This document shows, piece by piece, positions 53,682 through 64,000 of a DNA stretch of 64,000 nt. A program made the translations under genes and the position numbers. How positions within the stretch are numbered: position 1 is the first letter of the stretch; each line of letters starts with the position of its first letter. The DNA comes from an uncultured bacterium (lineage in GTDB: Bacteria > SAR324 > NAC60-12): positions 678 through 64,677 of the forward strand of contig CAXGMD010000007.1 in assembly GCA_964010765.1 (NCBI GenBank), in the 5' to 3' direction. The notes below the pieces were generated by a model that worked only from the letters and a program-made list of their open reading frames with translations, had not been told where the DNA came from and ran no database searches.

Positions 53682-54764
53682 ATGCTCGATGAGAAGCTGT
53701 CATCACTGAAGCAACGGCATGAAGAGCTGACTCATTTGCTGAGTCAGCCTGAAATCCTCCAAGATTCCTCCAGATATCTCAAACTTACGCTTGAGCACTC
53801 CGATTTAGAAGAAATCGTATCTACCTATTCCAAATTAACCAACCTGCGGCTGCAAATTAGAGATAACGAGGCACTCGTTTCTGATCCAAGTGAAGAAAAG
53901 GAGTTGCAGGAACTGGCGCTTGAGGAGTTATCCCAGCAACAAGAAGAAGAAAAATTTCTTGAAGAAAGCTTACAAAGACTTCTCCTACCGAAAGACCCGA
54001 ATGATCAAAGAAATGTGATTCTTGAAATTCGGGCTGGGACTGGAGGAGATGAAGCTGCTTTGTTCGCACGTGATTTATTTCGCATGTATGGAAAATACGC
54101 AGAAAGCCTAGGGTGGCGGATCCAAGTGCTGAGCGGACATGAAAATGATCTTGGTGGCTTCAAGGAAATCACTGCTTCAGTTGAGGGATCTGAAGTTTTC
54201 GCAAATCTGAAATTTGAGGCAGGTGTTCATCGTGTACAAAGAGTACCGAGAACAGAAACTCAGGGACGAATTCATACTTCAGCGGCCACAGTGGCAATCA
54301 TGCCTGATGTTGAAGAACTAGAAGTAGAAATAAATCCGAGTGATTTGAGAATCGATGTTTTTCGTTCTTCAGGGCCGGGTGGGCAAAGTGTAAATACAAC
54401 TGATTCTGCCGTCAGAATCACTCACTTGCCGAGTGGAATGGTTGTCAGTTGCCAAAATGAAAAGTCCCAGCTGAAAAACAAAAACCAAGCTCTAAAAGTA
54501 TTACGAGCTCGACTATATGAGGCTGAACAAGAGGCTCGGCAACAAGAAAGTTCTGCTCAACGAAAAAGTATGGTTGGTTCGGGAGATCGTAGTGAGAGAA
54601 TACGAACTTATAATTTCCCTCAGAATCGCATCACCGACCACCGAATCAATCTTACCCTTTATAAATTAGAAGAGGTGATGCTAGGAAGACTAGAATTTTT
54701 GACTGAACCCCTGAGACAACAAAACCAGATAGAACAACTGAAAAATCAAGGTGTTGAAACCTGA
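53682..54764 (+). CDS. prfA: Peptide chain release factor 1
   Basis: [21 protein letters not shown] (PxT motif), [20 protein letters not shown]. Confidence 0.97.
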
Positions 54765-55498
54765 GATTTCTCAGTTCGGTCCCCGTTTCGGAAAAAGAAA
54801 GCCCATCCCCCCAACAAGAAAGACGGTAAGATCACAAGCGCAAAGAAATTGCCAATGTTGCGCCGGATTTCTTCACTCGTTTGAAGGCTGCTCACAGGTT
54901 GATAAAAACCAAGAAAGTAAGTAGCTAAGCAGAAAAGCCAACAAAAGATAAAAGTGATATAACCCGTCTTTTGGCGAATACCTGCCCAAATCAGTAAAAT
55001 GAAAGTCAGCCCTGGTAACCAGAAGAAAAGTAAGCCGCCAAAGATTCCAAAAAATATCCCATCAATCAGCCCAAGTATTATTGATATAATTAATTCAAGT
55101 TCTCTTACTAACTCCAAAGAATTTTGAATTTTTTCAAGGATGAGCGAGCAGACTAGCAGCGCGGGAAAAACGCTTAGGATCTGAAAAAGTTTTCCTAATG
55201 AGAGATTAGAAAAACTCTTGAACAGATAGCAGAATTTAGTTGTTGAGAAAGTTTGCTCAACAGGATTGACCGAAAATTCTTCTGGATTAGTCGATAAACT
55301 ATCAGATTGAGCTCTCTTTAAAGCCTCATTTTCTGCGGATTTAACATCAATAAAATCATATTTTTCTTTTGAAAGTGGGTAATTAGCAGAGGAATCAGGG
55401 TGATAAAGCTTAGCTTTTTTTCTGAAAGCGTCACGGATCCGATCGGGATTGCGGGTTGGATTGATTCCCAGAATTTCCCAGCAATCCCGACGGTTCAT
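54746..55498 (-). CDS. J-domain protein with C-terminal multi-pass membrane region
   Basis: WEILGI...[15 protein letters not shown] (intact HPD), followed by about 5 hydrophobic segments; ATG 55498 lies 1 nt after the upstream stop. Confidence 0.75.
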
Positions 55499-55499
55499 T

Positions 55500-55859
55500 T
55501 TATGGAAGGAGTTCTGTTTTCGTTCTATACCCGTAGCGAGCAAGAAAAGTTGAGAATGACATCAGATTCTTGAACCGGTTTTGATAAAGCAGGTGTAAAG
55601 CTGAACTGATAATTTCTGCTGGATATTGGCGAATAGAGTAACCCGAGGCTTCCGAACCGTTGATAGATCCAAGTTGTTCTTTAAAAGTTAAATTGGCATC
55701 AGCATCACTTGAAGCGAGGCTATGTCTTAATCCCCGTGCTAGTTCATCGTATTGTTGATCAGAGATTAAAGATTCATCTAGACGATAGTAAAGGTAAGAG
55801 TGAACCAAAAATTGTCGAATTAATCTGTTGATTGTCTCAGTTGCCATTAAAGAACTCAC
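55500..55859 (-). CDS. Stand-alone NAD+-dependent DNA ligase domain Ia-like protein
   Basis: HSYLYYRLDESLISDQQYDEL aligns with LigA [21 protein letters not shown]; no KxDG adenylation motif; GTGA overlap with the upstream gene (alternative ATG 55847). Confidence 0.75.
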   Translation of the reverse strand: MSSLMATETINRLIRQFLVHSYLYYRLDESLISDQQYDELARGLRHSLASSDADANLTFKEQLGSINGSEASGYSIRQYPAEIISSALHLLYQNRFKNLMSFSTFLARYGYRTKTELLP

Positions 55860-56698
55860 CCTGTTTGACTTATTGAGTTCATATGGTTGTAGCAGTGCTT
55901 GAGCCAGTGCGTGAAAAAGTCATTACGATGAGTCTTCCAGTTGTTCAAGGGCCAGTCGGGGTCAAATTTTTCAGGACCAACAAATTGATCTTGATGACAA
56001 GTGAATCGGAGCATCTGTGAAGAAGTGTACTCTGGATTTCCAAGATGCATGAGCCATTGACCGTTGTCAGTATCCCAGATCAGGGGCTCTCCTTGACTCC
56101 TACAAAGTATCCTAAATTTTCCCTCTGCAGCTTTTTCTTCAAGTAAATCATTCAGAGGTGCTAGTTTCCTGACTTGGGGACAACAGAATAGATCATCAGA
56201 TTCTCCTGAAACAGGATGATCACTCGCTTGGTTTGTTACCTCCCAAACTCCGATTTTAGAAACTTCCAAAGCTTGATAACCAACTCCGCAAAGTTCGGTC
56301 ATCCATAGTGCTCCGTAGCCCAAGCCCATGATGGGCAATGTTCCACGCAGTTCAATGATCTTTCGATCTAATTTTTGACGAAAGTCTTTACTTGGTTCCA
56401 ACAGTCCAGAACCTACAATCACAAGCCCATCTAAATTGTCTGCTCTTAGCAGATCATAAATTTCCTCATCCCTTGAATGAATAGCATCAATCATTACTGG
56501 TAAAGATTGGATGATAGACATACCCAAAGGGCGGTAAAGGTTGATCTGCTCGACCATAGACTGCTCTTCAGTAGTCAAAATACCAATTCGAATAGGTCGA
56601 ATATCCTGACTTAGAGCCTGTTCCTGCTTGATACAGGTTATGTGGTTTTCCTCTAAAGTCCTTCGGGCATGGTAGTTATCAGGAACAACAATGGTCAT
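55856..56698 (-). CDS. Homoserine O-acyltransferase (MetA/HTS)-like protein lacking the catalytic Cys and His
   Basis: QDIRPIRIGIL, LDGLVIVG, DDLFCCPQVR, MHLGNPEY, P.NNWKTH..FF..WL match the MetA scaffold; ICWG->LGYG and GHPEY->GNPEY; reading frame intact. Confidence 0.75.
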   Translation of the reverse strand: MTIVVPDNYHARRTLEENHITCIKQEQALSQDIRPIRIGILTTEEQSMVEQINLYRPLGMSIIQSLPVMIDAIHSRDEEIYDLLRADNLDGLVIVGSGLLEPSKDFRQKLDRKIIELRGTLPIMGLGYGALWMTELCGVGYQALEVSKIGVWEVTNQASDHPVSGESDDLFCCPQVRKLAPLNDLLEEKAAEGKFRILCRSQGEPLIWDTDNGQWLMHLGNPEYTSSQMLRFTCHQDQFVGPEKFDPDWPLNNWKTHRNDFFTHWLKHCYNHMNSISQTG

Positions 56699-58203
56699 TT
56701 CGACTTATTGAATGGGGTTTCGGTAAATATTTTCTCTACCCTCGACAAAACCTTGCCATCATTTAGTTTGAGTTGCAGTGTTTGTCCTTTCTTAACTTGT
56801 TGAACACTTTTGATAACTTTTTGTTGTTGATCCATCGTAACACTGAATCCTCGATTCAACAATGAAAGCGGACTTAACGCGTCTAACTCGCTTATCAGTT
56901 CATGCAGTTTCTGTTGTTTGGTAGTTTGAAATACTGAGATAGCTCTAGAAATTCTTTGATGTTTTTCATTGAGAAGATTTTGAGACTTCAAAACTTCATG
57001 CTTTGGATTCTTATTCAACAATCTCTGATTAAGTGAAGTGAGATTTTCTTGAAGTTGTCTTTGGCTCAAGTTCCCCCATTTCTCTAGACGATATACAAGA
57101 TCTTCAATTCTTTCTCGTTGGATTTGAAGCGCTCGCTCAGGGGAGTTCAGTCTTTTAGTTTTGTCTGAGAAATCCTTTTTTGACTGATTTAGTCGATGGG
57201 TTATTTGTTGAAATAGTCTCTCTGATAAATTTCTTGTGGTGTTCACAAGATCCTCTTTCGAAGGTACTGCTAGTTCCATAGCAACGGAGGGAGTTGCTGC
57301 TCGAACATCCGCAACGAAGTCCGTGATTGTAAAGTCAGTTTCGTGCCCAACTGCTGAAATGACAGGAAGTTTTGATTTAGCTACGGCTCGAGCTAATGTT
57401 TCATCGTTGAAAGCCCAAAGATCTTCCAAGGATCCACCTCCTCTGCCGATGATAAGTACTTCCAAGCCCATTTCAATCGCCCGTTCATTGAGCCATTCAA
57501 TCCCTGTGACAAGTGATGCAGGAGCACTGGGGCCCTGCACGATTGATGGGAATAATATTAATCTCATGCCAGGAAATCGCCTCTTGAGAACCTTCAGCAT
57601 GTCCTGGATAACAGCTCCAGTAGGAGACGTTACAATACCAATCGCTTTGGGTAAAAAGGGTAATTCTCTCTTCCGATCTGCTTCAAAGAGGCCTTCAGTC
57701 AACAGTTTTTTACGAAGTTGCTCGTAGGCCATTTGAAGCGCACCAGCTCCTTTTGGCTCCAAGCCAGTCACATTTATTTGATACTCGCCTCGCTGCTCAT
57801 AAACTTGTAAAGAGCCCCTTGCCCAAACAGCCATTCCTTCTTCAGGGGCAAAGCTCAGTCGCATTGCTGCTTGTTTGAACAAAATCCCCCGTAGCTGAGC
57901 ATGCTCATCTTTAATGATGAAATACCAGTGCCCTGAACCAGCTCGGTGCAGATTTGATAGCTCACCCTCTACTATCAACGAGCGAAAACTACCTTCCAGG
58001 ACAAGCCTTACACTTCTGGTTAATTCCGAAACTGTCCAGACTGGATTGGGTTCCTCAAATGTGAGTTGATTAGGCTCTTTTTGTAGCTTGTTCTGATCTG
58101 AAGCGGCTAAAGTTTTTGAGTTGGATTTCGGAACGAAATCACTTATGGAATCAACCTCAAAAGGAATTACGGGCATTGCTGGCAGGCGAAAATTGAGAGA
58201 CAT
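56695..58203 (-). CDS. xseA: Exodeoxyribonuclease VII large subunit
   Basis: TVSELT...VEGELSN...SGHWYF OB fold, IGIVTSPTGAVIQD, GRGGGSLEDLWAFNDE, SAVGHETDFT..DFVAD.RA.TPS, LSPL..L.RGF. Confidence 0.95.
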   Translation of the reverse strand: MSLNFRLPAMPVIPFEVDSISDFVPKSNSKTLAASDQNKLQKEPNQLTFEEPNPVWTVSELTRSVRLVLEGSFRSLIVEGELSNLHRAGSGHWYFIIKDEHAQLRGILFKQAAMRLSFAPEEGMAVWARGSLQVYEQRGEYQINVTGLEPKGAGALQMAYEQLRKKLLTEGLFEADRKRELPFLPKAIGIVTSPTGAVIQDMLKVLKRRFPGMRLILFPSIVQGPSAPASLVTGIEWLNERAIEMGLEVLIIGRGGGSLEDLWAFNDETLARAVAKSKLPVISAVGHETDFTITDFVADVRAATPSVAMELAVPSKEDLVNTTRNLSERLFQQITHRLNQSKKDFSDKTKRLNSPERALQIQRERIEDLVYRLEKWGNLSQRQLQENLTSLNQRLLNKNPKHEVLKSQNLLNEKHQRISRAISVFQTTKQQKLHELISELDALSPLSLLNRGFSVTMDQQQKVIKSVQQVKKGQTLQLKLNDGKVLSRVEKIFTETPFNKSK

Positions 58204-58231
58204 TCGTCAAAGCGACATCTCTCAAAATGGT

Positions 58232-60676
58232 TCAGGAGGGGAGACTAGGATTAACTGTGGAAAGATCCTCTTGATTGATGACCTCAGTGTTCTCAGATTC
58301 AGCCTTCTCTTCTTCCAATGGATCTTGAACCGAGTCAGGAAAGCGACACAGAGCATTTCTCAGAATTTCATCAACATGTTTCATTGGAAGGATTTCCAAT
58401 CCATTTGTTATCTCATCAGGGACCTCTTCCAGATCCTTCAAATTTTCATGAGGGATTAGAACGGTTTTCATTTCAGCTCGTTTTGCAGCCAGTAGTTTTT
58501 CCTTCAAACCTCCAATGGGCAAAACTTTTCCTCGTAAGCTAATTTCACCAGTCATGGCTATGTCTTTCCGAACAGGAATACCAGTCAAAGCGCTGACCAG
58601 AGAAGTGGTGATGGTTACCCCTGCTGATGGTCCATCTTTGGGGACAGCTCCCTCAGGAACATGAATGTGTATATCCGTGTCTTTAAACACTTGAGAGAAT
58701 ATTCCAAGTGAATTGGCTCTGGTTCTGACAAAACTTTGAGCTGCCTGAGCTGATTCCTTCATCACTTCACCAAGTTTCCCGGTAAGTTGGAGTTGACCTG
58801 AGCCCTTCATCACACTCACTTCGGTCATCAACAACTCTCCTCCAACTTGAGTCCAAGCCAGACCGCAAGTAACACCTACTTCATTTTTATCTTCACCCTT
58901 TGCATGCTTGTACTTGGGAGCGCCAAGTAATTCATGAACCTTTTTCTGGTTCACGATCACCTTCTGTTTAGTTTGCTTGGTTACTATTTGAGTAGCCACT
59001 TTTCGGCAAATTTTGGAAATCTCTCTCTCAAGATTCCGAACCCCTGCTTCTCTCGTGTATCGTTGTATAACCTCAGAAACAGCTTGTTGGCGTAGGCTGA
59101 TTTGCTCATTTTTGAGCCCGTTTTCTGCGGTCTGTTTGGGAATAAGATGTTGACTAGCAATGTGTTCTTTTTCTAACTCTGTGTAGCCAGATAATGTGAT
59201 TGTCTCCATTCGATCTTTCAATGCCGCAGGGATGTTCTGAGCTACATTTGCCGTGCAGAAGAAGAGAATATTTGAAAGGTCATATTCTATCTCAAGATAG
59301 TGATCCATAAAGCTCTGATTTTGCTCTGGATCCAAAACTTCAAGCAAGGCAGCTGCAGGATCACCCATCACCCCTCTATTCATCTTGTCAATTTCATCAA
59401 GAAGCATCAAAGGGTTGGAGCTTTTGGATTTCCTGAGTGATTGAATAATTTTACCAGGCATTGCTCCGATGTAGGTTCGTCGATGGCCACGTATCTCAGC
59501 TTCATCTCTGACACCACCTAGACTCAAGCGAATAAATTTTCTTCCAAGCGCCTCAGCAACTGACTTTGCGAGGGAAGTTTTGCCGACGCCGGGAGGGCCT
59601 ACTAGACAAATAATTGGTCCACGGATTTCTCCGACTTGTTTGGCTACAGCCAGATATTCAATAATTCTCTCTTTGACTTTTTCCAATCCATAGTGGTGCT
59701 GGTTGAGAATTTTTTCGGCTGCGTCCAGATCAAAGTGATCCTCAGTCTTTTGCTCCCAAGGCATGGAAAGAAGCCAATCAATGTAGTTTCTGACTACGTT
59801 CGCTTCTGCAGACATTGGCGGCATCATCTTCAGTTTTTTCAATTCACGATTGCCAATCTCCTTGGCTTCCTGGGATAGAGGAAGTTCATTGATTTTTTTC
59901 TGGTATTCTTCAATCTCAGCCTTGCCGTCTTCTTGCCCTAGCTCTCGCTGAATAGCCTTTACCTGTTCATTGAGATAATACTCTTTTTGGGTTCGTCCAA
60001 TTTGTCCTTGAACTCGTTCTTTGAGTTTTTTCTCAACTTTTTTGAATTCAGCTTCCTCGATCATTCGTTCATAGACCATTTCCAGCCGCTGCTGAGGAGA
60101 AATGGTTTCAAGTAATTTTTGCTTCCGCTGCAGATCCATGTTGAGTAGTGGTGCGATACGATCCGCCAGTCGATGGGTAGGGTCACTTTCAATTGATAAT
60201 TTCTCAATTCCTTCGGTGTGTTTCTTGACGTCTTTGAGATAGCGCTTAAGTTCACTGCGAACATTTTTGGAAAGAGCGACCATTTCGGGATTTTCTTCTT
60301 CAATTTCTTCGACAGGTTCGACTACTCCAGTGTAGTAGGGTTCTCCCATTCGAGCCTCAATGAGTCGTCCACGTTGATGAGCTTCAAAGAGTGCTTTGAT
60401 CGTCCCATTGTGCAGTCTCATGATCTGCAGTACTTGACCAATGGTTCCCATTTCAAACAAATCTTTATCCCCCGGAATTTCAACAAGGGGATCTTCTTGA
60501 GCAATTACAAAAATCTTTCGATCAGAAGCCAAAGCTTTTTCCAAGGCTGCTATGGATAGAGCTCGGCCGATGAAAAATGGGGCAGTCATGTGAGGAAATA
60601 CAACGATGTCGCGCATTGGCAACATCGGCATTTCAATAGTGTTTTGAGAGGAAGAAGCACGGGAAGAATTTGACAT
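58232..60676 (-). CDS. lon: ATP-dependent Lon protease
   Basis: [11 protein letters not shown]-domain, [35 protein letters not shown] (Ser), IGGLKEK (Lys). Confidence 0.98.
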
Positions 60677-61292: not shown

Positions 61293-64000
61293 ATGAATTC
61301 TGATTTTATTGACGCCACAAGTAATGAGGAGGTATCTAATCCAGCACCACGGTTTGTTGTTGGACTTGGTGCCTCGGCAGGTGGATTGGATTCACTGGAA
61401 AAATTCTTCAAAAAAATGCCACCTGACAATGGCCTTGCTTTCGTGGTGGTGCAGCACCTTTCTCCAGATTACAAGTCCATGATGGTTGAACTGCTGTCAA
61501 AGCACACTCGCATGAAAGTGCAGCACGCTGTCGATGGATCAATGATTAGGCCAGATACCGTTTATTTAATTCCACCCAAAAGACAACTCACGATTGAGGA
61601 GGGAAAGCTCTATTTAGTAGAACAGGTAACAGTTTCTGGGATCAATTTGCCAATTGATATTTTTTTTCGTTCACTTGCTCGTGACCAAGAAAGTCAGGCA
61701 ATTGCCGTTATTTTATCAGGCACAGGCACAGATGGAACTTTAGGTGGCCGAGTTGTAAAAGAGGTGGGAGGTTATGTGTTGGTTCAGGCCCCAGAATCAG
61801 CCCAGTTTGACGGGATGCCGAAATCTGCGATTCAGACTGGTATTGCAGATAGTATTTTACCACCTGAGAACATGCCTCAGGAAATACTCAGGTATGTCGA
61901 ACATCCATATGCTTCCAGGTTACGTAATGAGCCCCCGTCATCTGATGAAGAAGATGTACTGCATAGGCTCCTTGCTGTCCTGCGTGAAGAAACTGGGGTA
62001 GATTTTACGGAGTATAAGTACGGCTCTCTGCTTCGGAGAATTCAACGAAGAATGGGGGTGATTCAAATCAGCACCTTGGATGAGTACCTTGAATATCTAT
62101 CTACAAACAAGGCAGAAGCCCATCTCCTTCATAGCGAATTATTGATAGGAGTTACGAGGTTTTTCAGGGATACAGAGGCCTTTGATAAACTTCGTGAAAA
62201 GGTTTTGTCGGAGTTTTTAGCAGCTCGAAAGCAAAACTCCCAGTCTCCTTTGCGCATTTGGGTAAGCGCCTGCTCAACAGGTGAAGAGGTTTATTCTCTA
62301 GCGATTTTGTTGGCAGAAGCAATGGAGCGCCACCAAACCTTCCTGAACATCAAGATCTTTGCCTCTGATGTTGATAAAAACGCACTGAATATCGCGAGTG
62401 CCGGGAGATACCCTGCAAGCATTATTGCTGATGTGCCAGTTCAATTGCTTGGCAAGTATTTCTTTAAAATTGGTGATTATTATCAGGTAGTTGAAAAATT
62501 ACGGAAGATGGTCATTTTTGCTCAACATAACCTCCTTAGAGATCCTCCATTTCACAAGCTGGACCTGATTTCTTGTAGAAATATGTTGATCTATGTCCAA
62601 TCAAGAGTGCAGAAACGTATTCTTTCGATGTTCAGCTTTGCCTTGAACCAAAATGGATTCATGTTCCTTGGGGGGAGTGAGACGCTTGGAGAAGCACAGG
62701 ATCTCTTCTGGACCGTGGATAGCCATGCTCGAATTTTTAGAAATAAAGGAGATGTCTATTTCCCAGAGTTCCAAGCTGTAGAGTCCAGTCGAATGGAAGT
62801 TAGAATGGACTCTAGGATTGGTCTGAAGGCAGGAGTTGGGGGGGATCAGCCGAAAACAGAAAAGCTGATAGAGGGAATCTATGAACATTTGATGGATCAG
62901 TATGTTCCATCTTCTGTAGTTATTGATCCGGAACTGAATATTCTACACGTATGGGGAGATATCAACGGGTTTGTTCGAATCCCCAAGGGGAATTTAACTT
63001 ATAATCTGTTGAGATTGCTGGATCAAAAGGTTGGTATAATTGTTAGTAATGCGATTCGAACTGTGCAAAAAAGCGGTGGCGAGATCATGTTCAGAGATGT
63101 TCAGATCGATACTGATGAAGGGCCAAAACGGATGAGGCTCTCAGTCACTCTTTATCGTCGGAGGCCGTTCAAACAGGATTTCTTCATCGTTACCTTCAAA
63201 AGTTTGAAGGAATTGAACGACGAGGACAAAAGGGTCAAAGAAACGACGGTTAATTTCAGCGAAGAAGCCGAAGAGCAGCTAAGAGATATGGACCGGGAAC
63301 TTCAACATACTCGGGAAAGTCTACAGACAACAATAGAAGAGTTAGAGACTACTAACGAAGAACTTCAGAGTACGAATGAAGAATTGATGTCTGCCAATGA
63401 AGAATTGCAGAGCACTAACGAGGAATTGCACTCTGTCAACGAAGAACTCTACACATTGAATGAAGAATACCAGAAAAAAATAGAGGAATTGACCAATGCA
63501 AATAATGATCTTAACAACCTGTATCTGACCACAAATATAGGGATCATCTTTCTGGATCGTCAGCTCTGCATCCGCAATTTTACTCCAGTTACCCAAGAGT
63601 ATTTCCCCCTCTTAAACCAGGATGTTGGTCGGCCGATCGCCCATCTGGCTGGAAGCTTTCCTTATCCAAATTTGATGGAGGATCTTGAAAAAGTTCTCAA
63701 GGTTCTTGTTCCAGTTAAAAGGGAAGTACAACTCAAAGATGACCGCTGGTGCCAGTTAGAGGTAAAGCCCTATCAGACAATTGAGAATCACATTGACGGG
63801 GCTGTGTTGGTTCTGCTCGATATTACAGAAATTCGCAGGTATCGGAGAAAACAAGAAGAATTGATGGAGGAAGTTGAACTTAGTAACAAGCGAATAACTC
63901 TCGCCAATGAAGTAGGAAAAGTGGCTTGGTGGGAGTGGAATTATGACAAAAAGGAGTTGATTTATCACCCCGACAAAGCCCGATGGCTCGGCTTCACGAC
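61293..64000 (+). CDS. CheB methylesterase / CheR methyltransferase / coiled-coil / PAS fusion (3' end outside the window)
   Basis: Read manually because it is absent from the ORF track: VVGLGASAGG, VQHLSPDY, ILSGTGTDG (CheB triad), LLIGVTRFFRD, CSTGEE, DLISCRNMLIY (CheR), EELQSTNEEL repeats, PAS segments; no stop codon before the window end. Confidence 0.93.
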   Translation, partial: MNSDFIDATSNEEVSNPAPRFVVGLGASAGGLDSLEKFFKKMPPDNGLAFVVVQHLSPDYKSMMVELLSKHTRMKVQHAVDGSMIRPDTVYLIPPKRQLTIEEGKLYLVEQVTVSGINLPIDIFFRSLARDQESQAIAVILSGTGTDGTLGGRVVKEVGGYVLVQAPESAQFDGMPKSAIQTGIADSILPPENMPQEILRYVEHPYASRLRNEPPSSDEEDVLHRLLAVLREETGVDFTEYKYGSLLRRIQRRMGVIQISTLDEYLEYLSTNKAEAHLLHSELLIGVTRFFRDTEAFDKLREKVLSEFLAARKQNSQSPLRIWVSACSTGEEVYSLAILLAEAMERHQTFLNIKIFASDVDKNALNIASAGRYPASIIADVPVQLLGKYFFKIGDYYQVVEKLRKMVIFAQHNLLRDPPFHKLDLISCRNMLIYVQSRVQKRILSMFSFALNQNGFMFLGGSETLGEAQDLFWTVDSHARIFRNKGDVYFPEFQAVESSRMEVRMDSRIGLKAGVGGDQPKTEKLIEGIYEHLMDQYVPSSVVIDPELNILHVWGDINGFVRIPKGNLTYNLLRLLDQKVGIIVSNAIRTVQKSGGEIMFRDVQIDTDEGPKRMRLSVTLYRRRPFKQDFFIVTFKSLKELNDEDKRVKETTVNFSEEAEEQLRDMDRELQHTRESLQTTIEELETTNEELQSTNEELMSANEELQSTNEELHSVNEELYTLNEEYQKKIEELTNANNDLNNLYLTTNIGIIFLDRQLCIRNFTPVTQEYFPLLNQDVGRPIAHLAGSFPYPNLMEDLEKVLKVLVPVKREVQLKDDRWCQLEVKPYQTIENHIDGAVLVLLDITEIRRYRRKQEELMEEVELSNKRITLANEVGKVAWWEWNYDKKELIYHPDKARWLGFT

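Follow-up and report, generated by a model that had tools for sequence, protein, structure and literature searches.

Solo forms of Nlig-Ia, the nicotinamide mononucleotide (NMN)/NAD+-binding domain Ia of NAD+-dependent ligase, were described computationally in 81 phages and proposed to be NAD+ sensors (Iyer, Burroughs, Anantharaman and Aravind 2022, Viruses 14:1977, PMC9503650), and that description presents them as virus-only, without cellular precedent. A literature search for the name Nlig-Ia found nothing beyond that paper. For the MetA/HTS homoserine O-acyltransferases a ping-pong mechanism is given in PMC13683966, and a literature search for pseudoenzymes of homoserine O-succinyltransferase found none in this family. 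Other described systems of relevance here are the DjlA-type membrane J co-chaperones, exonuclease VII (ExoVII; XseA/XseB) and the Lon protease. The window analyzed here is a stretch of 64,000 nucleotides (nt) from an uncultured member of SAR324, a group abundant in the dark ocean and known only from uncultured organisms (assembly GCA_964010765.1, contig CAXGMD010000007.1, positions 678 to 64,677), and it carries, in a single minus-strand cluster, lon, xseA, a gene for a MetA paralogue lacking the catalytic Cys and His (MetA*), a solo Nlig-Ia gene and a gene for a membrane-anchored J-protein. The best explanation, to which a probability of about 60% was given, is that this cluster is a real operon restricted to one genus and not a dedicated five-part system: an inherited string of genes which was remodelled and whose parts have separate histories and functions. 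Its most notable components are a chromosomal, vertically inherited solo Nlig-Ia and a MetA pseudoenzyme maintained by selection, whose probable functions are proposed here from sequence.

A sequence-only reading of the window had interpreted the five genes as a candidate undescribed system. The five minus-strand open reading frames (ORFs) were indeed present in the ORF list of the window at 54746..60676, and the very tight junctions were verified by reading the sequence: lon and xseA are separated by 28 nt, xseA and MetA* overlap in an ATGA, MetA* and Nlig-Ia overlap in a GTGA, and the Nlig-Ia and J genes meet as TAA-a-ATG, leaving a gap of 1 nt when ATG 55498 is taken as the start of the J gene. 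Under the longest-ORF rule, this gene would begin at TTG 55543 instead (54746-55543, a 44-nt overlap with Nlig-Ia), but in the alignment its orthologues begin at the ATG equivalent to 55498 and not at the TTG. xseA is the first gene of a translationally coupled four-gene string, xseA-MetA*-Nlig-Ia-J. Scans for promoters and terminators found sites no more numerous than in shuffled sequence and none between the genes.

Close orthologues of MetA*, with 54-90% identity, were found in four further genomes of the genus, all of which retain the order rho-rpmE-prfA, J-Nlig-Ia-MetA*-xseA-lon, yggT as far as their contigs extend. The order xseA-MetA*-Nlig-Ia-J together with the tight overlaps is retained in 5/5 genomes of the genus with the locus assembled, including the divergent G001. 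The xseA/MetA* overlap is 4 nt in all four loci having both genes; that of MetA* and Nlig-Ia is 4 nt in four of five loci under the longest-ORF rule and also in the fifth, L019, with the conserved GTG as start codon; and Nlig-Ia and J overlap by 4 nt in three relatives, where the window has its 1-nt gap. Apparent absence of the three accessory genes (MetA*, Nlig-Ia and J) from four other genomes of the genus was traced to assembly gaps: the contig of G003 stops inside xseA, while neither xseA nor prfA is assembled in G004, G006 and G007 (67-80% complete), so absence of the trio there is uninformative. Chance assembly of the operon, which the sequence-only reading had regarded as the main alternative, was not borne out, because the arrangement recurs in four further genomes of the genus.

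Table 1. Genes of the lon-J cluster, positions in the window, with the best profile scores.
Gene	Position	Strand	Product and profile score
lon	58232..60676	-	814 aa, ATP-dependent protease La, housekeeping; TIGR00763 953.6 bits, cut-off 608
xseA	56695..58203	-	502 aa, exodeoxyribonuclease VII large subunit; TIGR00237 460.5 bits, cut-off 180
MetA*	55856..56698	-	280 aa, MetA/HTS-fold paralogue; Pfam HTS PF04204 69.6 bits, cut-off 27
solo Nlig-Ia	55500..55859	-	119 aa; PF22745 52.6 bits, cut-off 27
membrane J-protein gene	54746..55498	-	250 aa from ATG 55498; DnaJ PF00226 37.6 bits, cut-off 27.8

The ratio of nonsynonymous to synonymous substitution rates (dN/dS) was calculated pairwise by the Nei-Gojobori method among the closer genomes of the genus, synonymous sites being saturated against G001. 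It amounted to 0.11-0.19 for MetA*, 0.16-0.32 for Nlig-Ia and 0.29-0.32 for the J-membrane gene, compared to 0.11-0.16 for xseA, 0.06-0.10 for prfA and about 0.03 for lon. The values of 0.11-0.32 for the three accessory genes show purifying selection on each of them, and even in G001, despite the saturation, the frames, motifs and overlaps are still kept. Both checks suggested together with the sequence-only reading, conservation of accessory-gene order and dN/dS, were thereby positive within the genus (five genomes). An explanation of the cluster as chance neighbours and decaying remnants, with MetA* as a dying duplicate and the small ORFs as meaningless, would agree with the low HTS score of MetA* (69.6 bits) and with its missing catalytic residues, but is very improbable: the dN/dS of MetA* equals that of xseA, its 63 intact orthologues carry identical substitutions, the frames are intact in five genomes and covered in RNA libraries, and Nlig-Ia is conserved across an order. 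These data on selection and conservation have largely refuted it already.

Parts of the stretch were contained in 17 RNA-library runs, four of which, from four studies, were mapped. The J/Nlig-Ia junction was bridged by contigs X1 record 3, X2 record 10 and X4 record 19, the Nlig-Ia/MetA* junction by X2 record 11, X4 record 19 and X5 record 28, and the MetA*/xseA junction by X2 record 11 and X4 record 20. RNA libraries may hold DNA, and the bridging contigs are consistent with co-expression, no more. Library X5 yielded one contig of 2431 nt (58242-60669) which corresponds almost exactly to the lon ORF and has a depth of 65 against 13-27 for the downstream contigs; its extent and depth weakly suggest additional, separate expression of lon.

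The domain assignments made from the sequence alone (Lon, ExoVII large subunit, a MetA fold, a lone ligase domain Ia, and an HPD J-domain with a membrane anchor) were all recovered by Pfam and NCBIfam. The Nlig-Ia ORF comprises domain Ia followed by a conserved C-terminal helical extension and stands alone, without the catalytic module of the ligase; it reached 18.7 bits with the LigA models, whose cut-offs are 444 and 369. The gathering score of PF22745 is also exceeded by sixteen relatives from other genera. An alignment of 15 sequences contained two invariant blocks, with Y25, D34, Y37 and D38 invariant. According to profile-match offsets, Y24, Y25, D34, Y37 and D38 of the window protein, each invariant or at least 90% conserved in this alignment, correspond to positions 22, 23, 32, 35 and 36 of E. 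coli LigA, presumably the essential domain-Ia residues of Sriskanda and Shuman (2002). In PMC7470946, the nicotinamide is described as stacking on a tyrosine pair of ligase domain Ia. A literature search on Tyr22 and Asp36 of LigA gave nothing of use.

The AlphaFold model of Nlig-Ia (predicted local distance difference test 85.4, predicted template modelling score 0.80) has residues 1-45, its first two helices, superposing on LigA domain Ia at 0.8-1.0 Å. Matches to domain Ia of the LigA structures 1TA8, 1TAE, 3BAA and 1V9P extended over 44-49 columns at 0.8-1.7 Å with a probability of 0.92-0.94; their Foldseek E-values are weak (0.8-0.95) because the match is short. The whole chain matched solo phage proteins of 104-131 aa with template modelling scores of 0.57-0.70. 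With tblastn, 152 records matched, and coverage of the query reached 80% or more in just three of them, all proteins of Bacillus jumbo phages with 38-40% identity over 84-94% of its length. The search against PHROGs gave phrog_6466 (E 9.5e-14), and among the nearest ESM Atlas clusters those with recorded taxa are viral.

The SAR324 protein resembles the solo phage Nlig-Ia proteins in family (PF22745), in fold, in lacking a catalytic module and in keeping the ligand-contact residues. It differs in being encoded by a chromosomal, single-copy gene with housekeeping neighbours which has been inherited across two families. The viral origin of the published description does not apply to the window protein, whose gene lies on the chromosome in synteny with rho, prfA, lon and xseA. 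Furthermore, the phage solo forms are mostly without any ligase, according to PMC9503650, while the SAR324 genome also has an intact, full-length LigA (model positions 1-651 of 652, 753 bits) with its own Ia region. Being chromosomal, single-copy and syntenic across two families, the SAR324 gene represents a cellular member of the Nlig-Ia family, and this changes the picture of a phage-only NAD+ sensor drawn in 2022. A profile search of a large protein collection gave 602 matches, of which the best 120 included solo proteins of the SAR324 type only, a portion which says nothing on other cellular lineages.

The phage affinity of Nlig-Ia raises the possibility that the cluster is a cassette for anti-phage defence or of prophage origin: the closest full-length relatives of Nlig-Ia outside SAR324 are the Bacillus jumbo-phage proteins, and both the fold of the solo phage models and the viral Atlas clusters agree with such a source. 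Such a cassette is nevertheless hardly credible at a locus flanked by rho, rpmE, prfA, lon and yggT, in a window of even G+C throughout, with an Nlig-Ia gene that is single-copy and syntenic across an order. The PADLOC defence models gave no match for XseA, MetA*, Nlig-Ia or the J-protein, and responded to Lon only via shared Lon/AAA+ domains.

Another possibility is that Nlig-Ia acts in trans with the ligase, either as part of a split ligase, in which it provides a truncated LigA with domain Ia, or by modulating LigA adenylylation, and takes part in nick processing with ExoVII. The conserved domain-Ia residues and the occurrence of xseA, priA and dnaB as neighbours in different genera would fit this. 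The split ligase was rejected on account of the full-length LigA of the same genome. Action in trans as a whole is distinctly improbable: this LigA has its own Ia region, the C-terminal extension of Nlig-Ia is common to the solo phage proteins and not to LigA, and phage forms occur mostly without a ligase to assist (PMC9503650).

The distribution of solo Nlig-Ia was surveyed in a sample of 88 genomes of this phylum. It was present in 47 of them, order-wide, including 34 of the 45 genomes of the family (11 of 12 genera); by family, it was found in 33/44 genomes of f1, in 13/19 of the sister family f2 and in none of the 24 from five further families. Eighteen family loci were fetched and the nearest ORFs of 16 were run against Pfam (74/145 ORFs), two g11 loci of the same layout being omitted. 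A RodZ-like gene (HTH_25 plus RodZ_C) was located at most two genes downstream of Nlig-Ia in 13 of the 16 loci, often followed by a radical-SAM gene, and a PNP_UDP_1 phosphorylase gene adjoined Nlig-Ia in six; in the window genome, RodZ is placed between glnE-like and P-II genes. In family f2, hemA and/or hemD stand directly upstream of Nlig-Ia in 7/9 loci, with hemD itself in six.

Several local features accompany these loci. In L107:43-1155 (G039), HemD (HEM4, residues 2-222) and Nlig-Ia (254-336) share one open frame, which may reflect a natural fusion or the loss of a stop codon. Genus g2 has a neighbouring Nudix/DUF4743 gene divergent to Nlig-Ia (L043:7050-7922 and L045:8435-9313); together with the recurrent PNP_UDP_1 neighbours, it hints at nicotinamide-nucleotide or nucleoside metabolism. 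Unannotated upstream ORFs of 320-350 aa were considered as a common upstream partner and discarded, being related only within genus g12. The neighbours PNP, Nudix, RodZ, hemD and xseA provide a cellular setting in which the ligand and the target of Nlig-Ia could be found.

Outside the genus, the accessory genes, which differ in age, did not behave as one linked set: the parts were found apart in genomes of the family, so at the family level they occur independently, although their linkage within the genus is firm. The proposed five-gene system is only partly supported, and the attractive claim of a five-part system had been over-extended. The adjacency of lon and xseA is also specific to this genus. 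Genome G017 has the order aroE-xseA-metA-Nlig-Ia-PNP-RodZ with a true MetA (287 bits), and G015 (L133) has aroE-xseA-metA-PNP-RodZ, again with a true MetA (286 bits) and without the Nlig-Ia gene that separates metA from PNP in G017; the whole G015 genome, listed as 100% complete, yielded no Nlig-Ia, which was probably lost in that lineage.

Because two other genera carry aroE-xseA-metA(-Nlig-Ia)-PNP-RodZ with a true MetA, the core order is probably inherited, and the present string would have arisen by remodelling this SAR324 housekeeping order. In the genus of the window, lon would have come to stand upstream of xseA, PNP-RodZ would have been replaced by the J-membrane gene abutting prfA, and the position of MetA would have gone to a protein of a Cys-less MetA lineage, one in which the His has been lost as well. 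Separate action of the parts is most likely, with Lon and ExoVII keeping their ordinary roles and XseB supplied from elsewhere in the genome. Nlig-Ia would be an old, vertically inherited small protein which keeps the NMN-contact residues and, as a sensor or regulatory subunit of some target, probably binds NAD+ through its nicotinamide-nucleotide part, or alternatively NMN or nicotinamide riboside. MetA* probably works through binding of a ligand or a partner, and the J-protein would bring DnaK to the membrane.

MetA* covers positions 1-294 of 298 of the HTS profile, a weak but full-length match, and falls far below both NCBIfam MetA equivalogs (50.2 bits against a cut-off of 460.5, and 34.4 against 495). 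Five solved MetA chains matched (2GHR, 2VDJ, 6MTG, 7CBE and 2H2W), with alignment to residues 2-292 of B. cereus MetA 2GHR. Besides the full-length family alignment, MetA* has in common with the MetA/HTS homoserine O-acyltransferases the triad Glu and numerous scaffold motifs. In contrast to these enzymes, it has Gly in place of the catalytic Cys, Asn in place of the His, and (P/T)TE(E/P) where their N-terminal NxMP loop would be. The positions and roles of the catalytic Cys, His and Glu are presumably those of the MetA literature, and the register was checked against 2GHR and the true MetA of the same genome; a literature search on the Cys142 triad of MetA gave only unrelated proteases. The loss of both residues, already suspected from the sequence alone, was found in all five genus orthologues and in 63/63 MetA* orthologues of the large protein collection. 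A true MetA (282.6 bits) is encoded at another place in this genome, on contig C26, where its gene adjoins a metY-like gene. MetA* is accordingly regarded as a maintained candidate pseudoenzyme, predicted to be unable to form the acyl-Cys intermediate.

In a tree of 28 family MetA proteins, the MetA* clade had a long branch (1.15) and fell outside the clade of true MetA proteins, on one side of a 100/98 split together with three paralogues (G013a, G022 and G010a) which have Gly at the Cys position and keep the His; the Cys-less group was named only after the tree had been seen. The nearest database relatives outside the MetA* orthologue set were again Cys-less, 10 of 15 non-orthologues having "GIGWG...GHPEY". 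MetA* is assigned on these grounds to a wider Cys-less MetA lineage and appears here to have lost the His also. As constrained as xseA, this lineage member is a candidate pseudoenzyme, and together with Nlig-Ia it offers a testable lead to SAR324 regulation. Recent duplication of the metY-linked metA of the genus as the source of MetA* was disfavoured (approximately unbiased, AU, test p = 0.02). The His-keeping paralogues are located at L020:6334-7245 (G013), L131:2555-3442 (G022) and L134:2495-3400 (G010). Their motifs, GIGGG or GIGWG ... GHPEY, recur in proteins P0115-P0124 and P0129, and their neighbours are a luciferase-like monooxygenase and an OpuAC gene, or a catechol dioxygenase. In G022, the Cys-less copy was the only MetA seen.

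The J-protein consists of an N-terminal J-domain with HPD, a linker of about 35 aa and about five hydrophobic spans as judged from hydropathy. YHPD is present in 4/4 orthologues, and the membrane part matches no Pfam family. With the DjlA-type membrane J co-chaperones it shares an HPD J-domain and a membrane anchor, but its architecture is reversed, the J-domain being N-terminal and followed by the spans, and it scored 15.8 bits with the DjlA model PRK09430, whose cut-off is 162. It also differs from them in that its full-length homologues are confined to the genus, apart from matches of 27-29% identity in genus g2, where the gene is unlinked and lies between a LigB-type dioxygenase and an ABC ATPase gene. 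J-domains recruit DnaK, which by analogy suggests that the J-protein may recruit DnaK to the membrane.

Several observations weigh against a remodelled operon of separately acting parts. The preservation of 4-nt overlaps across saturated synonymous divergence shows selection for coupled expression, from which XseA, MetA*, Nlig-Ia and the J-protein could be functional partners. The metA-Nlig-Ia adjacency occurs in a second genus as well (G017). Solo Nlig-Ia stands beside genes of DNA transactions, namely priA (G013), dnaB (G027) and xseA (two genera), which hints at a role in DNA metabolism. An origin of MetA* in situ from the xseA-linked metA has been neither shown nor rejected (AU p = 0.2, subject to long-branch effects), and its long branch makes the placement in the tree uncertain. 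Finally, contigs from RNA libraries cannot prove a single transcript.

The first two of these points also bear on the proposal that the accessory trio is a functional module, in which MetA* and Nlig-Ia would serve as metabolite/NAD+ sensors or adaptors and, with the J-protein and DnaK, would tune ExoVII or Lon proteostasis. The conserved translational coupling of four genes, the purifying selection on all three accessory genes, the RNA-library contigs across the junctions and the G017 adjacency would all agree with it, as would the instability of E. coli MetA and its ties to proteases and DnaK reported in PMC3735405. Such a module is nevertheless unlikely, if worth serious consideration: the three genes differ in phyletic range and are unlinked outside the genus, lon adjoins them only in this genus, the lon-sized X5 contig of higher depth weakly hints at separate lon expression, and neither experiment nor prediction provides an interaction. 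A complex prediction for MetA* and Nlig-Ia (alignments A2 and A1), run without controls, scored 0.00, below the mark, which weighs neither for nor against an interaction. The coupling of Nlig-Ia and MetA* to Lon/DnaK proteostasis or to ExoVII activity, as put forward in the sequence-only reading, is pure speculation; no link of the cluster to Lon, DnaK or phage defence was found in this analysis, and the literature on ExoVII in SAR324 yielded nothing useful. A bolder and rather improbable version would have MetA* and Nlig-Ia as a sensor pair which, through the J-protein, conveys methionine-branch and NAD+ status to DnaK and on to ExoVII-dependent repair or Lon proteolysis, with solo Nlig-Ia as a cellular NAD+-sensing subunit later borrowed by phages, the reverse of the published view.

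The two housekeeping enzymes of the operon are unremarkable as proteins. Lon has the Pfam domains Lon_C, LON_substr_bdg, AAA and Lon_lid, XseA has Exonuc_VII_L and an OB fold, and both pass the NCBIfam equivalog cut-offs as ordinary equivalogs. Compared to known ExoVII and Lon genes, the arrangement differs in that xseB is unlinked and the lon-xseA adjacency is restricted to this genus, in both G015 and G017 aroE being the gene before xseA. The absence of xseB from the cluster had been noted correctly from the sequence alone: it is encoded in the same genome on contig C39:16744-16896. At the other end of the cluster, the convergent 3' ends of prfA (plus strand) and the J gene (minus strand) share 19 nt (54746-54764 of the window). 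Beyond yggT, an ORF of more than 902 aa occupies 61293-63998 and continues past the end of the window.

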